Of a stretch of DNA of 16,655 nucleotides, positions 8,042 to 13,867 are shown piece by piece. The translations under genes were made by a program, and so were the position numbers. The notes below the pieces were generated by a model. It saw nothing but the letters and a program-made list of their open reading frames with translations, was not told the origin of the DNA and did not search any database. Origin of the DNA: a virus (Duplodnaviria > Heunggongvirae > Uroviricota > Caudoviricetes). Positions within the stretch are counted from its first letter, which is position 1, and each line of letters starts with the position of its first letter. The DNA is taken from IMG/VR virus record IMGVR_UViG_2619619134_000015, positions 1 to 16,655 of that record; one strand, written 5' to 3'.

Positions 8042-8512
8042 CTAATAAAACACCCAGTTTTCTGTTTCTTGGTTGTGTCCAAAGTTATATTCAATATCTG
8101 GTGTTGATGTATCAATATTCTTCATCCCATCAACAAGAGTTGATGCAACAGCCAAATCTTGTTTGATTCTCATTAAATGGTATTTCTTCCGGCGCAATAA
8201 ACTTTCAATGGCAAGTTTCTTCGTTGGGAATGCAAAAGATCTTTCTGCATTTTTTGCTACTTTCTTAATTGCATATCTATTTCTCTTTTGTTTCCATTCC
8301 TGTAACCACTGATTTGGTGCTGGTTTAAAATTAACAATCCAATGCGCAGGAACCAACCATGCATAATGCTCTGTCTGATGAAAAGCTATATATTGAAGTG
8401 CGAATATTTTGATTCCATCTTCTTCAACTGTCGCCTGGAATCTCCAGAAAACAGGCATTCCATCATGTTCAGTTTCTGATTCAGGAAAAGGTACGCTCCA
8501 TGATTTTGTCAT
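8042..8512 (-). CDS. Hypothetical protein (156 aa), accessory cassette gene A
   Basis: ATG at 8512 preceded by GAGGTGA. It lies in an AT-rich segment (judged by eye) in the position of lambda ral/sieB. No recognisable motifs. Confidence 0.6.
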   Translation of the reverse strand: MTKSWSVPFPESETEHDGMPVFWRFQATVEEDGIKIFALQYIAFHQTEHYAWLVPAHWIVNFKPAPNQWLQEWKQKRNRYAIKKVAKNAERSFAFPTKKLAIESLLRRKKYHLMRIKQDLAVASTLVDGMKNIDTSTPDIEYNFGHNQETENWVFY

Positions 8513-8569
8513 ATCTCACCTCAAATAATTCAGTGCAGTGTTTATTCTGTTGCTTATTCCAAAGCAAAT

Positions 8570-8812
8570 TTAACCAGCAACAAACTCTTCTGGTAATTTA
8601 TCAACCACTTGATGGCTTATTATCAGCCATTTGCCATCCTTCGTTCCGTATGCATATTTCTGGTCTTTTATCATCATGTGTTCAGCTACTGCCTTAACTG
8701 CCTGTTCGGTTACATCTTCTTTCTTTCCCACCCACATTCCTTTTTCAGTGTTTAATGTTCCTTGAAAAATACGACCACTTAATGGGCTTGCGCCCATAGT
8801 TTTGATTTTCAT
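8570..8812 (-). CDS. Hypothetical protein (80 aa; MKIKTMGASPLSGRIFQGT...), accessory cassette gene B
   Basis: Start chosen at the ATG at 8810-8812, preceded by GGAGA. The longer ORF-track start at 8875 has no RBS and would overlap gene C. Confidence 0.5.
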   Translation of the reverse strand: MKIKTMGASPLSGRIFQGTLNTEKGMWVGKKEDVTEQAVKAVAEHMMIKDQKYAYGTKDGKWLIISHQVVDKLPEEFVAG

Positions 8813-8820
8813 ATGTCTCC

Positions 8821-8848
8821 TTAAAAATAAAGGCCGATTATGCGGCCT
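8821..8848 (-). terminator. Hairpin plus T-run (leftward) between cassette genes C and B
   Basis: On the minus strand, an AGGCCG-cataat-CGGCCT hairpin (8831-8848) is followed by TTATTTTTAA, immediately before the gene B RBS. Confidence 0.45.
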
Positions 8849-8852
8849 GAAA

Positions 8853-9176
8853 TTAATTAACCAATGATGCTGCATATTCGATAAGGTAAAGCTTTGGGGC
8901 CAGCCAAATTTTTAACCAAGTCATATTGGTTACTGCACCAATAATAAAATCCCCCCACAGAGTCAAAACTCCAACCAATGGCACGATAAGAAGATTAATA
9001 TCACCTTTGCTATCCCAAACCATTGTCGGCCTGTATTTGGGATTTCCTTTCTCCCATGAATATCCTTCATCACCGATTTCACCTGTCTCAACTCTTTGGC
9101 ACTGCTTCTTCATAAACCAGAAAACCAGTGGGATTGTTAGAATGGCTATTAATGTTTTAATCAGACTGTCAACCAT
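8853..9176 (-). CDS. Small membrane protein (107 aa, two predicted TM helices), accessory cassette gene C
   Basis: Start at the ATG at 9174-9176 (the ORF-track start at 9191 is a TTG). Hydrophobic stretches LIKTLIAILTIPLVFWF and INLLIVPLVGVLTLWGDFIIGAV. RBS is weak. Confidence 0.5.
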   Translation of the reverse strand: MVDSLIKTLIAILTIPLVFWFMKKQCQRVETGEIGDEGYSWEKGNPKYRPTMVWDSKGDINLLIVPLVGVLTLWGDFIIGAVTNMTWLKIWLAPKLYLIEYAASLVN

Positions 9177-9442
9177 ATTCCATAGCAGCAACTGATGAAC
9201 AACATCAGGAATCTGTGCCTGGCTAAATGAAACAGCCGCGTCTATTCCATTGCTGGCTTTTTGCAGTAGTTCTACGAGAATCTTGTTTGCTTGTTCTTCC
9301 GTATATCACCTTAAATAGTGGATTGCGGTAGTAAAGATTGTGCCTGTCTTTTAACCACATCGGGCTCGGTGGTTCCTCCACTTTCCACAGTCAAAGGAAA
9401 TGGGTAGACTGTTGTTTCCACAGTCAAAAGAAGGGCTTTGTT

Positions 9443-9607
9443 ATGACAGATATTGTTAATCCCAAAACCAACCCACACGAAGCCGCTCAACAGATTATTG
9501 TTGAGCTTATCAGAGCCGGTAATCTTGCCCCTGGCATTGACGGAAAGCCAAGCACAGTTGTTTATGAAAAAATTCTTGATGAGATTATCAGAATAAACAG
9601 TAAGTAA
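9443..9607 (+). CDS. Hypothetical small protein (54 aa; MTDIVNPKTNPHEAAQQIIVELIRAGNLAPGIDGKPSTVVYEKILDEIIRINSK)
   Basis: First ATG of the 9338..9607 ORF, preceded by AAGAAGGG. It is the only rightward ORF in the left arm and is preceded by two 18-bp direct repeats. Confidence 0.35.
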   Translation: MTDIVNPKTNPHEAAQQIIVELIRAGNLAPGIDGKPSTVVYEKILDEIIRINSK

Positions 9608-9847
9608 TTAAGAGAACAAAATTTCGAATGCCTGGCGGATGGTTGCAACATCTTCGTTCGTCAGTTTTTTTCGTTCATCTGATGACATCGATAACAATGC
9701 ATTCCTCTCAATCAACGTAGCCAGCAGTTTAGATGCTATATTTTGAACGTCAGGGCTTAACTCTAAGAATTTATTTCGACTACGTTCGAGAATAAGTTGT
9801 GTCGCGGGTGTATCTTTTAACTCAGATATTTTTTTTGTCCAATACAT
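9608..9847 (-). CDS. Hypothetical protein (79 aa from the ATG at 9847) immediately downstream of N
   Basis: The ORF-track start at 9871 is a TTG; the first ATG is at 9845-9847 with a weak RBS. It is convergent with the 54-aa plus-strand ORF. Confidence 0.35.
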   Translation of the reverse strand: MYWTKKISELKDTPATQLILERSRNKFLELSPDVQNIASKLLATLIERNALLSMSSDERKKLTNEDVATIRQAFEILFS

Positions 9848-9904
9848 CAAGCATTTCTTTCGTTTTCTCAATTAGTAATTGTTCAATACATGAAATATCC
9901 ATAA

Positions 9905-10213
9905 TTACCTCGCCGTCAGTTGTTTTGATTTCCGATAGCCTGCCACGTAGATGGCTACGTTTGGCAGGCAAATGCTTCCATTGCATTCGTCGGTATTTTG
10001 GTTACGAATGTTGCCGAGTGATATTGCTTTTTCAGAAAGGCTTAAACGCTTTCTCGGTTCTTTCTGAACAGGTTCATCACTGTCTGTACCGAAGATCGAA
10101 TCGATGATGTTGCATATAGCATCACGCTCGATAGCCAGCTTTCTGCGCCGCTCATGACGGCGAGTTTTGGCATTTCCTGTAAATGTTGATTTCCCGTACA
10201 CGATTACCGTCAT
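9905..10213 (-). CDS. N: N-type transcription antiterminator (102 aa), P22 gp24-like
   Basis: Arginine-rich motif GNAKTRRHERRRKLAIERD near the N-terminus, matching my recollection of P22 gp24. It sits between the immunity region and the recombination genes. The nut sites have P22-type GACAA boxB loops. Confidence 0.8.
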   Translation of the reverse strand: MTVIVYGKSTFTGNAKTRRHERRRKLAIERDAICNIIDSIFGTDSDEPVQKEPRKRLSLSEKAISLGNIRNQNTDECNGSICLPNVAIYVAGYRKSKQLTAR

Positions 10214-10392
10214 GATGTTTTCCTCATGTAAAATGGCTTTGGTGGTGAGGTAGGTGGGAGACCCATTTCGACCTGTTTCGGCCTACTTCAATTCGGCAAT
10301 AGTCCCGCAGGCCTCGCCGCTTTACGTGCGACATATTCCCGTCCATGAACCCTTCACCACACCGCCAAACCCATCTCGTTTGGTATCTGTTT

Positions 10393-10426
10393 GCGCTTTG
10401 TCAGCGCCCCATCGAAGTTAAAGAGC
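10393..10426 (-). promoter_or_regulatory. nutL (boxA-like GCTCTTTAA plus boxB hairpin GCGCU-GACAA-AGCGC)
   Basis: Read on the minus strand: boxA-like GCTCTTTAA, a roughly 10-nt spacer, then a perfect 5-bp stem with a GACAA pentaloop. Confidence 0.55.
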
Positions 10427-10776
10427 CCGCCAATCTGTTCCGTTTGGCTTCCAACGTCCTGCTGATGGCGATAATAATGAACCAGTAGTTCGATATTATC
10501 AAGAACTATTGGTACGAATCGTTTATGATTTATTAACTCTACGAAATATGATTTTGATATATAAGGAAATTTATTTTTGTAAATGTTGCGGATGAAGGTT
10601 ATGCGGCAGGGATCAGAATTGCGTGGTTTAGCAAGTTGTATCTATTTATTTTTCAATAAATACAATTGGTTATGTGTTTTTAGATGGTGGATCGGGAGGC
10701 AAAGAAAACTGCTAGGTAGAAAACTGTGGGCACAAAAAAGCTAATGTGGAGTTGTTTGATCTTTTTAGGGGAATAA
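10427..10776 (-). promoter_or_regulatory. Presumed pL/OL region (promoter and operators not resolved)
   Basis: AT-rich non-coding segment between the terminator of the cI-linked module and nutL. Position only; no confident -35/-10 or operator assignment. Confidence 0.3.
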
Positions 10777-10803
10777 GAAAACCCGCCGAAGCGGGTGTTT
10801 TTG
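10777..10803. terminator. Bidirectional rho-independent terminator (AAAACCCGC-CGAA-GCGGGTGTTTTT)
   Basis: GC-rich 6-bp stem with a 4-nt loop flanked by an A-run on one side and a T-run on the other. It lies immediately after the stop of the 40-aa ORF, in the position of the lambda immunity-operon terminator. Confidence 0.7.
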
Positions 10804-10804
10804 G

Positions 10805-10927
10805 TTATGCTGCCATTGGAAGCTTTGATGCTAGCATTTCTGCTTTTCTCTGCTTCATTTCAGCAATAATCTGATTGATTCGATCCGCACTTTTAAGCAT
10901 ATCTTTGATATGTTCAGTTCTAGACAT
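10805..10927 (-). CDS. Hypothetical small protein (40 aa; MSRTEHIKDMLKSADRINQIIAEMKQRKAEMLASKLPMAA)
   Basis: Not in the ORF track because it is under 60 aa. ATG at 10925-10927 preceded by GGAGG at 6-nt spacing, 23 nt after the stop of the 120-aa gene. A TAA stop is followed directly by the terminator. Confidence 0.5.
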   Translation of the reverse strand: MSRTEHIKDMLKSADRINQIIAEMKQRKAEMLASKLPMAA

Positions 10928-10950
10928 GTTTATCCTCCGCTCTGTAAGTG

Positions 10951-11313
10951 TCAAAGACCCGATTTAGCACTCTTGAGTAGTTTTGATCCCTCAGAGCACA
11001 AATCAGGATTCTTTTCTCTTATGTTTTTGATTAAAATCTGTGCAAATATGATGATTTGCTTTAAGTTTAGTTCATTGATTGCATCAGCTTTTTGGTCAAG
11101 TTTCTCTAGCTCTGCATCTAATTCGTCAAGAGATGGGTTTGTTAACTCATGCAACCCTTCAATTCCAAGCTCTTCAAGACTGGTTGTAACAAATTCAATC
11201 AGACCGATTACAGCCTTTTTGACGCTATATATCTGCTTCTCCTCTGCGGAGGCCTCTGCACTTGGAACCAATGCTAAGGTTTTCAGATATTCATTCGTTT
11301 CATCTTGGGTCAC
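10951..11313 (-). CDS. Hypothetical acidic protein (120 aa) in the rexA/rexB position downstream of cI
   Basis: GTG start at 11311-11313 preceded by AAGGAG at 8-nt spacing. Same strand as cI and AT-rich. The overlapping plus-strand ORF 10910..11434 has antisense-like S/F-rich composition. Confidence 0.55.
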   Translation of the reverse strand: MTQDETNEYLKTLALVPSAEASAEEKQIYSVKKAVIGLIEFVTTSLEELGIEGLHELTNPSLDELDAELEKLDQKADAINELNLKQIIIFAQILIKNIREKNPDLCSEGSKLLKSAKSGL

Positions 11314-11479
11314 TAACTATACTCCTTATATATGCTCGATCAACCCATTTTGCAACCGCATTTACTGGGATAGAGCTTTTTTTACAATAGTCTTATGTGT
11401 ATATTTACAACGTTGTTTGTGGATAGGGTTATGATTTGTACCTAAAACCTGTCGCATTTTCGTCTCTATGCTATTGGTA

Positions 11480-12187
11480 TTAATAATTTCTCAGCCACTC
11501 CCTTGCCTCGATGTCATCCAGATGGCGAGATTGCTTCAGAATACCAGCCACATACTCCACCTTTGCTACTTGATGATAAGGCAACGTTATTGGTCTGTGG
11601 TCCTGGTTGATGCTTGTAAATTGGTATTCTCCATCTCTGTCATAGCCAAGAATCTTGATCATGTTGTGTCCTTCGATGGTTCTGACAAACACCTCATCAC
11701 CCGGGAATACTTTGGTGTTAGGCTCAATGAGTACATATTCTCCTGATTTTATTCTGGGCCACATGCTGTCTCCTTTCACACGAAGACCAAAGGCATCTGG
11801 ATCATCGCTATAAATCTTGAGCCACCCATCGCGTTCTTCGGTCATCTCGATGGCACCATCAACACCAAGAATTGCCTCACCAACCACGCGCACTAACCCT
11901 TTTTTTAATTTGCCAACAAATGAAAGAGTATCTTCATCATTCGCTCCATTTAACGAAGTGCCGTGCTGAAGCCAAACAACATCAACGTTTAGAAATTTCG
12001 CAAGCGCATTCATTTTTTCCTGACGCGGTAAAGACTCAGCATTAAACCATTTGCTAACGCCTTTGGACGAAAGAGAAAGGGCACGGGCTATAGCCATTCC
12101 CCTACCATGTTCATCAAGACCAGCTTCTTTACAGGCTTGCGCTAGCCGCTGGGCGAATTCTTTGCGCACTTTTTCATTCTGAACCAT
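11480..12187 (-). CDS. cI: CI-type prophage repressor (235 aa), HTH N-terminal domain plus LexA/S24-like self-cleaving C-terminal domain
   Basis: N-terminal HTH region (GMAIARALSLSSKGVSKWFNAE) and a C-terminal domain with the Ser (GDSMWP) and downstream Lys typical of the S24 peptidase fold. It is divergent from cro. It is not the lambda cI sequence. Confidence 0.85.
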   Translation of the reverse strand: MVQNEKVRKEFAQRLAQACKEAGLDEHGRGMAIARALSLSSKGVSKWFNAESLPRQEKMNALAKFLNVDVVWLQHGTSLNGANDEDTLSFVGKLKKGLVRVVGEAILGVDGAIEMTEERDGWLKIYSDDPDAFGLRVKGDSMWPRIKSGEYVLIEPNTKVFPGDEVFVRTIEGHNMIKILGYDRDGEYQFTSINQDHRPITLPYHQVAKVEYVAGILKQSRHLDDIEAREWLRNY

Positions 12188-12928: not shown

Positions 12929-13867
12929 ATGACAAATACAGCAAAAATACTCAACTTCTGCAGAGGTAACTTTGCCAAACAGGAGCGTAATGTGGCAGAT
13001 CTCGATGATGGTTACGCCAGACTATCAAATATGCTGATTGAGGCTTATTCAGGCGCAGATCTGACCAAGCGACAGTTTAAAGTGCTGCTTGCCATTCTGC
13101 GTAAAACCTATGGGTGGAATAAACCAATGGACAGAATCACCGATTCTCAACTTAGCGAGATTACAAAGTTACCTGTCAAACGGTGCAATGAAGCCAAGTT
13201 AGAACTCGTCAGAATGAATATTATCAAGCAGCAAGGCGGCATGTTTGGACCAAATAAAAACATCTCAGAATGGTGCATCCCTCAAAACGAGGGAGGTTCC
13301 CCTAAAATGAGGGACATCCCTCAAAACGAGGGAAAATCCCCTAAAACGAGGGATAAAACATCCCTCAAATTAGGGGATTGCTATCCCTCAAAACAGGGGG
13401 ACACAAAAGACACTATTACAAAAGAAAAAAGAAAAGATTATTCGTCCGAGAATTCTGGCGAATCCTCTGACCAGCCAGAAAACGATCTTTCTGTGGTTAA
13501 ACCGGATGCTGCAATTCAGAGCGGCAGCAAGTGGGGAACAGCAGAAGACCTGACCGCCGCAGAGTGGATGTTTGACATGGTGAAGACCATCGCACCATCA
13601 GCCAGAAAACCGAATTTTGCAGGGTGGGCTAACGATATCCGCCTGATGCGTGAACGTGACGGACGTAACCACCGCGACATGTGCGTGCTGTTCCGCTGGG
13701 CATGCCAGGACAACTTCTGGTCCGGTAACGTGCTAAGTCCGGCCAAACTCCGCGACAAGTGGACCCAGCTCGAAATCAACCGTAACAAGCAACAGGCTGG
13801 CGTGACAGCTGGAAAACCAAAACTCGACCTGACAAACACTGACTGGATTTACGGGGTGGATTTATGA
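12929..13867 (+). CDS. O: Replication initiator O (312 aa)
   Basis: MTNTAKILNF...TDWIYGVDL matches lambda O as remembered, except for a 13-aa insertion (GGSPKMRDIPQNE) that corresponds to two extra ori iterons. Confidence 0.95.
   Translation: MTNTAKILNFCRGNFAKQERNVADLDDGYARLSNMLIEAYSGADLTKRQFKVLLAILRKTYGWNKPMDRITDSQLSEITKLPVKRCNEAKLELVRMNIIKQQGGMFGPNKNISEWCIPQNEGGSPKMRDIPQNEGKSPKTRDKTSLKLGDCYPSKQGDTKDTITKEKRKDYSSENSGESSDQPENDLSVVKPDAAIQSGSKWGTAEDLTAAEWMFDMVKTIAPSARKPNFAGWANDIRLMRERDGRNHRDMCVLFRWACQDNFWSGNVLSPAKLRDKWTQLEINRNKQQAGVTAGKPKLDLTNTDWIYGVDL
13278..13401. repeat. ori-lambda-type iteron array within O: six roughly 18-bp iterons (TCCCTCAAAACGAGGGA-like) at about 20-bp periodicity
   Basis: Iterons at approximately 13278, 13298, 13317, 13337, 13361 and 13384, followed by an A-rich region (acaaaagacactattacaaaagaaaaaagaaaag). 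Confidence 0.85.

Follow-up and report, generated by a model that had tools for sequence, protein, structure and literature searches.

What are two nearly identical direct repeats doing immediately upstream of a small plus-strand open reading frame (ORF) in the left arm of a lambdoid prophage? The window, that is, the whole 16,655-nt stretch of DNA analyzed here, comprises the left arm and immunity region of such a prophage and carries genes for an integrase, a YqaJ exonuclease, RecT, a DUF2528 protein, N, and an S24/HTH repressor, as well as lambda-type origin iterons. As reported in the preliminary description, it contains two 18-bp direct repeats with a 33-bp period: TTTCCACAGTCAAAGGAA and TTTCCACAGTCAAAAGAA are identical at 17 of 18 positions, start 33 bp apart, and end 10 nt ahead of the ATG at 9443. 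A search for the repeat elsewhere, which had been proposed at the same time, found these two sites alone in the 16.6-kb window when up to three mismatches were allowed. The repeats are not a chance occurrence; two matches to the motif were seen in 0 of 200 dinucleotide-preserving shuffles (shuffle mean 0.04). The repeats and their neighbors are as follows.

9382-9399, plus strand: repeat copy 1, with its core TTCCACAGTCAA at 9383-9394; it runs over the -35 position TTTCCA (9382-9387) and into the upstream spacer of the cargo promoter and, on the minus strand, is the sequence of hairpin B (see below).
9415-9432, plus strand: repeat copy 2, with its core at 9416-9427; predicted first ~12 nt of the cargo mRNA.
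9443-9607, plus strand: cargo ORF, 54 aa, phrog_27767, a family with no assigned function.
9608-9847, minus strand: ORF downstream of N, 79 aa from the ATG, or 87 aa from a TTG at 9871.
9905-10213, minus strand: N antiterminator gene (Pfam N_peptide, E 2.8e-38).
11480-12187: cI-like repressor, a 235-aa cI candidate.

The 54-aa cargo ORF and the 79-aa ORF are convergent and meet stop to stop, as had been noted. The further remark that the former is the only rightward small ORF in the left arm has to be narrowed: a mechanical ORF list contains many plus-strand ORFs, and it is in the RefSeq annotation of E. coli 214-4, whose DNA is 100% identical to the window over 9302-9950, that the cargo (WP_164997364.1, hypothetical protein) is the sole plus-strand coding sequence between ral and N. 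No match to the 54-aa protein was found in Pfam, PADLOC, or NCBIfam, and its homologues consist of near-identical proteins plus a single one with 59% identity. The top match of an exhaustive search with this protein, P0004 (1696 aa), is repetitive and eukaryotic-looking, matches at 'PGIDGK', and was discarded as spurious. The family of the 79-aa ORF, recognized by the motif MKFEELP...Q.IAA..L...VR.AF..LY, is encoded behind several cargo types and was seen at the equivalent place in 43 loci; it does not accompany every cassette. A weak PHROG match to an HTH protein was also obtained for this family (E 0.0045).

The analogy to lambda sieB that had been drawn for this ORF proved to be exact. In the window, lambda, and P22 alike, a plus-strand gene lies between the early-left genes on the ral side and the N/24 antiterminator gene, with which it is convergent, and this sieB slot is the one filled by the repeats and their cargo. 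Window positions 9300-9375 are homologous to lambda 34357-34432. In a megablast search against phages, homology extended from 8823 to ~9375 and was found again from 9909, a break that identifies 9376-9908 as a mosaic insert.

Lambda (NC_001416) 34482-35036, plus strand: sieB, adjoining N.
P22 (NC_002371) 29758-30336, plus strand: sieB coding sequence, 192-aa SieB, adjoining gene 24.

Both reference phages carry repeats of their own at this place. In lambda, two exact 10-bp copies of ACCCCTACAG (34,437-46 and 34,471-80; positions 438-447 and 472-481 of our locus L129) lie 34 bp apart directly before sieB, and in P22, ACCCCTACAGCGAGAAA (29,693-29,709) and ACCCCTACAGAGAGTAA (29,727-29,743; locus L358) are likewise 34 bp apart. 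In the two phages, copy 1 starts 22 nt before a TAAACT hexamer and copy 2 starts 7 nt after it. The RefSeq record of P22 annotates a sieB promoter at 29690-29720 and a 'sieB RNA start site' at 29727, the position at which repeat 2 begins. Scanning with only the lambda/P22 spacer, and hence without bias toward the repeats, retrieved ~30 unique loci, all of which have ACCCCTACA in both places; the 6 nt between the -10 and copy 2 are variable in these lambda/P22-type loci. In a five-way alignment, the sequences are collinear over the whole stretch that leads from the upstream structure to the ATG. To our knowledge, neither a lambda sas RNA nor the lambda repeats have been described, and a literature search returned no description of either.

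The P22 sieB/esc/sas module, reportedly described by Ranade and Poteete in 1993, is the natural term of comparison. It resembles the window in slot and orientation and in the order of its parts: pseudoknot, repeat 1, -10, repeat 2, leader, and ATG. It differs in the sequence of the repeats and leader (TTCCACAGTCAA in the window versus ACCCCTACAG in P22 and lambda), in the repeat period (33 bp versus 34 bp), and in the cargo, an unrelated 54-aa protein in the window versus the 192-aa SieB. The region upstream of lambda sieB (34,400-34,481) likewise has the same pseudoknot sequence as the window and two repeats around its TAAACT, and is unlike it in repeat sequence and cargo. The window cargo, a phrog_27767 protein, is not a SieB with an in-frame internal Esc; the locus is therefore filed as a variant of the sieB/sas module and not as a sieB locus, and since no internal Esc frame is evident in this cargo, a translation switch of the P22 style would probably not work in the same way here.

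How widespread is this arrangement? We defined the cassette as CTTTCCACAGTCAA-N21-TTCCACAGTCAA-N14-17-ATG. A sensitive search with the insert 9376-9908 gave a single phage match, Salmonella phage MS2 LVA, over the repeats only; there, both cores precede a different ORF of 93 aa, and in E. coli prophages the cassette is also found ahead of a third ORF type of 84 aa. The exact two-core pattern occurs in at least 119 IMG/VR contigs and in 25 species-representative genomes from ~17 genera of Enterobacterales, among them Pseudescherichia, Providencia, Proteus, Klebsiella, Mixta, Yersinia, Photorhabdus, Rahnella, Izhakiella, Trabulsiella, Xenorhabdus, Serratia, Pantoea, Erwinia, Enterobacter, and Leclercia. 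The E. coli form is present in 12 of 5,426 complete E. coli genomes. Across 96 unique cassettes, the block CTTTCCACAGTCAA-RGRAAA is kept, the 21-nt spacer takes 59 different forms, and sequence conservation drops to background at the start codon.

Because both cores were fixed in this first scan, two further scans were run with half of each core fixed. With CTTTCCAC...TTCCAC fixed and the 3' halves free, AGTCAA/AGTCAA was recovered in 123 of 138 regex-matched cassettes. The converse scan, with CAGTCAA...CAGTCAA fixed and the 5' parts free, gave TTCCA/TTCCA in 123 of ~124, with locus L253 as the one exception. Some loci have changed both copies jointly: six loci, whose downstream ORFs have 4 different starts, carry AGACAA/AGACAA, L150 has AGTCGA/AGTCGA, and L187 has AGCC/AGCC. 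Changes confined to one copy mostly affect the last core position, position 12 (L188, L199, and L192); others fall at position 4 (L253) or at position 10 (lambda/P22-type loci), and the commonest variable core position is T9. The core TTCCACAGTCAA is under selection, its copies being kept identical while the spacer diverges. The selected repeat is this 12-nt core only, as the purine-rich bases that follow it differ in role between the copies: after copy 1 they enter the arm of an RNA hairpin, and after copy 2 they belong to the ribosome-binding region, with a Shine-Dalgarno candidate, GAAGGG, at 9430-9435. A natural one-copy form was found in E. coli 203740 (L007, ~1236-1300), an exact 33-bp collapse by which the -10 is removed.

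What follows the cassette is far less uniform. Taking as cargo the first ORF after the cassette (loci L010-L128 and L333-L357), at least 14 unrelated BLASTP clusters, one of them that of the 54-aa window cargo, were found among 92 distinct first ORFs of 32-138 aa in the matches listed, and copy 2 lies 14-17 nt from the ATG in 129 of the 154 cassettes listed. The cargos behind the TTCCACAGTCAA cassette are unrelated to SieB; this version thus comes with at least 14 cargo clusters in ~17 genera, as compared with SieB for the P22 module. The largest cluster is GhoS-like (Pfam PF11080, 22.7 bits for a cut-off of 21) and resembles the NCBIfam YmfI family (E 3e-16, below the family cut-off). The other clusters include coiled-coil 84-mers, zinc-ribbon proteins, and two helical families. 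In a PADLOC search of the cargo clusters, none was matched, weak coiled-coil matches aside. In the e14 element of E. coli K-12 (L479, 5420-5500), a pseudoknot and one degenerate copy, TCACACAGCCAGCAAGCAAGGAAAC, are followed by ymfI, itself a GhoS-like cargo, with no TAnnnT hexamer upstream; this second natural one-copy form would place the e14 gene ymfI in a sieB-type cassette slot.

The spacer holds the conserved -10 of a predicted promoter for the cargo. Counted from the first core base, position 22 is T in 96/96 of the unique cassettes, position 23 is A in 95/96, and position 27 is T in 96/96; positions 24 and 25 are near random. This TAnnnT pattern characterizes sigma-70 -10 hexamers and is in many cases of the extended type, with TG one base 5' of the -10 in 68 of 96 cassettes and G after it in 91 of 96. 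The -35 position, TTTCCA, begins one base 5' of the core. In the window, the copy 1 core starts 22 nt before the -10 and the copy 2 core 6 nt after it, and TAGACT aligns with the TAAACT of the annotated P22 sieB promoter.

9405-9410, plus strand: TAGACT, the -10 hexamer of the cargo promoter, at a spacing of 17 bp from TTTCCA.
9417 +/-1 nt, plus strand: predicted transcription start, 7 nt after the -10 and within the first bases of copy 2.

In the five-way alignment, window position 9417 coincides with the P22 'sieB RNA start site' at 29727, and by this analogy copy 2 would form the 5' end of the cargo mRNA. A consensus promoter scan of 8800-10400 on both strands returned no site; the cargo promoter was missed there because its score is only 8/12.

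Alternatively, the repeats might act on the plus strand only, as RNA polymerase contacts or as a 5' leader element that affects the stability or translation of the mRNA, the second copy being a relic of the tandem duplication that built the promoter. Copy 1 does hold the -35 position and copy 2 the predicted transcript start, the collapse in L007 takes out exactly one 33-bp unit, and in many variants the 5' UUCC of the mRNA can pair with GGAA of the ribosome-binding region. This pairing is, however, absent from copy 2 of the window, and a relic would not keep its copies identical while the spacer diverged into 59 forms, nor would its copies change jointly. The plus-strand explanation also leaves unexplained the wobble pairs of hairpin B that are specific to the minus strand, as well as the adjoining pseudoknot, both presented below. 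We consider this explanation quite unlikely.

The minus strand was compared with the sas RNA of P22. In reviews, sas is an antisense RNA, ~105 nt in length, by which the translation of sieB is switched; the switch in P22 is between SieB and the internal product Esc. We cite the sieB/esc/sas module through PMC12197685 and PMC13397905. P22 sas has been sequenced and is 127 nt long (PMC13397905, Table 2), and it reads in order the complement of the sieB start codon, the leader, copy 2, the -10, copy 1, AACCACCGAGCCUGACGUGGUUAAAAGACAGGC, and a short tail (PMC13397905). The last 52 nt of this RNA are identical to the minus strand of the window (9376-9325) at 49 of 52 positions. Its 5' half is collinear with the window and diverged, as expected if it is matched to a different leader. 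The preliminary description had also offered that the repeats could be part of a small RNA, and this suggestion fits well: the sequenced P22 sas covers the equivalent stretch, and a covarying hairpin and pseudoknot are predicted on the minus strand of the window.

9325-9447, minus strand: putative sas-like antisense RNA, its extent estimated from the sequenced P22 sas and the 49/52 identity at the 3' end; it would contain the complement of the start codon, the Shine-Dalgarno region, copy 2, the -10, and copy 1, followed by hairpin B and the pseudoknot and, at the end, a tail of 17 nt.
9376-9396, minus strand: hairpin B, stem CUUUGACU / AGUGGAG, loop GUGGAA, from an RNAalifold consensus.
9342-9374, minus strand: predicted H-type pseudoknot, stem S1 AACCAC (9374-9369) with GUGGUU (9358-9353), stem S2 GCCCG (9365-9361) with CAGGC (9346-9342), loop 3 AAAAGA; S2 has one C.A mismatch in the window.

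By homology with P22, a sas-like RNA with approximately these ends would be made by the window phage. Leftward transcripts from pL that pass through N would include the minus strand of the cassette, and as no promoter for the antisense RNA was found in the window, the RNA must be assumed to be processed from pL transcripts. Two candidate minus-strand promoters were rejected: one with TTGACT of the repeat as -35 had no acceptable -10 at 16-18 bp, and a TATWTT over the 5' edge of copy 2' (primes denote complements of the repeat copies) is present in only ~60% of cassettes and would place the RNA start too far downstream. Rfam returned no relevant match for window 8500-10800 or 9250-9500 or for P22 29500-29900 at E values of up to 10, and sas itself is absent from Rfam. 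It should be noted that many loci, including L010, L333, and L338, have a terminator-like hairpin, GGTCGCTTAGGCGGCC, followed by TTTTTT on the minus strand 10-25 nt beyond the pseudoknot, which would set a defined 3' end of the sas-like RNA in those phages; in the window, there is no terminator-like site until 8848-8831.

In hairpin B, the loop GUGGAA is the complement of nucleotides 1-6 of the cargo mRNA when counted from the core start (9416-9421), or of nucleotides 1-5 if the start is 9417, and together with UUGACU of the 5' arm it is the complement of the whole 12-nt core. In the pair counts, 98.2% of cells were paired versus 37-53% with the partners slid, and five pairs of the whole structure, including three of hairpin B, have changed on both sides. 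Many of the U.G pairs of the hairpin would be C.A on the plus strand; the window hairpin has three G.U pairs. Core position T9 is the bulged base of the hairpin, and the change at A11 in L150 is compensated in its 3' arm (pair 52/66, C-G). A comparable fold is obtained for P22 sas, whose loop contains GGGG, the complement of nucleotides 2-5 of the sieB mRNA. The mean unpaired probability of GUGGAA is 0.62 in copy 1' versus 0.42 in copy 2', a modest gap from folding that ignores the pseudoknot. An alternative hairpin over copy 1', UUUCC/GGAAA, had 94% of cells paired and no both-side changes, which is weaker support than for hairpin B, and a further hairpin, ACAGTC/GACTGT, between the repeats and the -10 region is confined to spacers of the TAGACT class.

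The pseudoknot lies directly beyond hairpin B. Under H-type loop rules (L1 0-3 nt, L2 0-2 nt, L3 at most 10 nt), a perfect parse was obtained for 94 of 103 unique sequences on the minus strand versus 45 of 103 on the plus strand. Its stems vary widely among phages, with 25 S1 and 11 S2 types in a first parse of 88 sequences: S1 is CCACG/CGUGG, CGCGC/GCGCG, AACCCGC/GCGGGUU, or ACAGGG/CCCUGU in other phages, and S2, GCCUG/CAGGC, is replaced elsewhere by GCCGGG/CCCGGC or GCUGGG/CCCAGC. At S2 pair 84/102, G-C is found in 14 of 28 sequences and U-A in 13, and loop 3 is 63% A. The modeled pairing shows a covarying H-type pseudoknot on the minus strand, with compensatory changes in both stems. The same element is found in lambda (~34,400-34,432) and in P22 (29,653-29,685), where it is the 3' domain of sas, and corresponds to no Rfam family.

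These data bear directly on the earlier proposal that the repeats are binding sites for a regulator, cI or a host factor, which is not supported. In a broader form, and as the main rival to an RNA-based explanation, this proposal holds that the 12-bp cores are operators of one DNA-binding protein, of phage or host, that represses or gates the cargo promoter. The sites would occupy -34 to -23 and about +1 to +12 on the same helix face (33 bp), bracketing the -10 in the classic way of a repressor; the fixed 33-bp period and the joint changes of both copies would fit a co-evolving protein, and a block of 20 bp is conserved around copy 1. CTTTCCACA also resembles the DnaA box TTWTNCACA with one mismatch, in a comparison by eye. 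However, no neighboring protein family is common to all loci, and the cassette co-occurs with annotated repressors that differ in length and annotation: the cI candidate of the window has 235 aa versus 216 aa for the LexA-family proteins of L002 and L003. No third copy and no complementary copy of the repeat was found within ~7 kb in the loci, so that a phage regulator would have this one target only. The exact 12-mer occurs from Proteus to Escherichia, while lambda and P22 have another sequence in the same geometry, a distribution expected neither for a single host factor nor for a single phage factor. The cores lack palindromic symmetry. The flanks of copy 1 vary as RNA pairing requires, with compensatory changes and with wobbles that are allowed on the minus strand only, a kind of variation that a protein site does not predict; joint changes of the copies are likewise expected for base pairing.

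Among known regulators, no operator pair for cI, LexA, DnaA, CRP, or IHF was recognized; the consensus comparison was made by eye and gave an 8/9 match to the DnaA box and no LexA, CRP, or IHF match. The DnaA box leaves the conserved GTCAA unexplained. For LexA, the spacing CTGT-N7-ACAG is wrong and the box is absent in other variants, and direct repeats of the CRP, FNR, IHF, IclR, GalR, or response-regulator kind gave no convincing match, again by eye. Judged on their sequence, the repeats are probably not cI or host-factor operators, and we regard a protein operator pair as unlikely.

A third possibility is that the block is a 'boundary sequence' for the exchange of cargos by recombination among lambdoid phages, in which the repeat has no regulatory role. 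The homology to many phages does end right after the pseudoknot and resume in N, the left flank is shared by at least 14 cargo clusters, and repeat-mediated deletion occurs. Against this, the 12-bp cores are too short for homologous exchange, the position-specific conservation of TAnnnT and the structured covariation point to a function in transcription or RNA, and for the homologous P22 unit, the promoter has been mapped and an RNA detected. This possibility appears very improbable.

The explanation that we favor, with a probability of roughly 60%, is that the repeats belong to a control module of the sieB-sas type that operates on two strands, in which copy 2 is the 5' end of the mRNA and is captured by copy 1'. 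It explains why the copies are identical and vary jointly, why lambda and P22 have a different repeat in the same geometry, and why covariation is seen on the minus strand. In this module, a sigma-70 promoter with its -35-like TTTCCA in copy 1 and its -10 TAGACT would drive the 54-aa ORF, presumably in lysogens, and a transcript starting at ~9417 would carry copy 2 as its 5' end, just 5' of the ribosome-binding site. Leftward transcription through N would yield a sas-like antisense RNA of ~105-130 nt. This RNA would complement the leader over its full length, together with the ribosome-binding site and the start codon, and would continue beyond the mRNA start and over the promoter. There, the complement of copy 1 would form a hairpin presenting a second complement of the first 12 nt of the mRNA, and the RNA would end in the H-type pseudoknot. 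Lytic or superinfecting leftward transcription would then likely silence, through antisense pairing, the translation of a cargo expressed from the prophage. Even without this second site at copy 1', the RNA would be fully antisense to the leader. Copy 1' may lie exposed and capture the 5' end of the mRNA, much like the RNA-OUT loop of IS10 and its target RNA-IN.

In IS10, the RNA-OUT loop presents the complement of the extreme 5' end of RNA-IN, and pairing spreads down the arm and blocks the ribosome-binding site. The likeness would be one of working and not of descent, and the arrangement differs: the IS10 loop lies inside the true overlap of the two RNAs, whereas the copy 1' hairpin lies outside it, as a duplicated site followed by a pseudoknot. 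Other phage systems such as lambda OOP/cII, P22 sar/ant, and anti-Q resemble the window in that a short antisense RNA of one developmental state silences a gene of the other. In those systems, however, the RNA is annotated with a promoter and terminator of its own and the target site is not duplicated; no promoter of its own was found for the window RNA.

One further step can be taken tentatively. The 12-nt core may be an exchangeable 'address tag', such that any small gene put behind the common leader is expressed from the prophage and is silenced by the sas-like RNA of a phage with the same tag, incoming or induced; we consider this possible and somewhat doubtful. If it were true, the tag hairpin and pseudoknot would be a dedicated capture-and-stability domain, the tags TTCCACAGTCAA, ..AGACAA, ..AGTCGA, and ACCCCTACAG would define cross-silencing groups of lambdoid phages, and the cargo clusters, at least 14 in number, would be a reservoir of exclusion or host-modulating proteins under one generic RNA switch.

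The P22 sieB-sas module as a kind is already known. A literature search, which did not reach the 1993 P22 papers, returned no description of the TTCCACAGTCAA tag type with many cargos, of a duplicated 5'-end complement as a design common to lambda and P22 (those papers may mention the P22 repeats), or of the pseudoknot, and a search for the repeat sequence gave nothing relevant. If the two-strand module is right, the P22 sieB-sas switch would not be a one-off but one version of a widespread modular cassette with which lambdoid prophages in many enterobacterial genera carry and control interchangeable small genes. The conserved promoter and leader could then serve to find prophage-expressed 'moron' genes, nearly all of the cargo clusters lacking an assigned function. 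The antisense RNA would be structured, with a covarying pseudoknot that lambda carries too and that is absent from Rfam, and the module offers a testable hypothesis for the duplication of an mRNA 5' end beside its own promoter.

Several observations concern the surroundings of the cassette. In E. coli 214-4 (L001, 4040-6465), an IS66-family element, ISEc43, lies just upstream of N toward the repressor side; with the element in this position, N and the cassette would be separated from pL in that strain. ISEc43 is absent from the window. On the other side, the start codon of the equivalent of lambda orf28 is lost at 9300-9302, where CAT of lambda is CGT (ATG to ACG on the minus strand), and the next minus-strand gene is a 112-aa phrog_3054 ORF at 8853-9191. 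A plus-strand ORF of 174 aa (10910-11434) lies between N and the cI-like repressor, roughly at the position of lambda rexAB and on the opposite strand; it gave no match in Pfam, PADLOC, or NCBIfam. Finally, four iterons of 17-19 bp (ATCCCTCAAAACGAGGG) at 13276-13400 mark a lambda-type replication origin inside an O-like gene.
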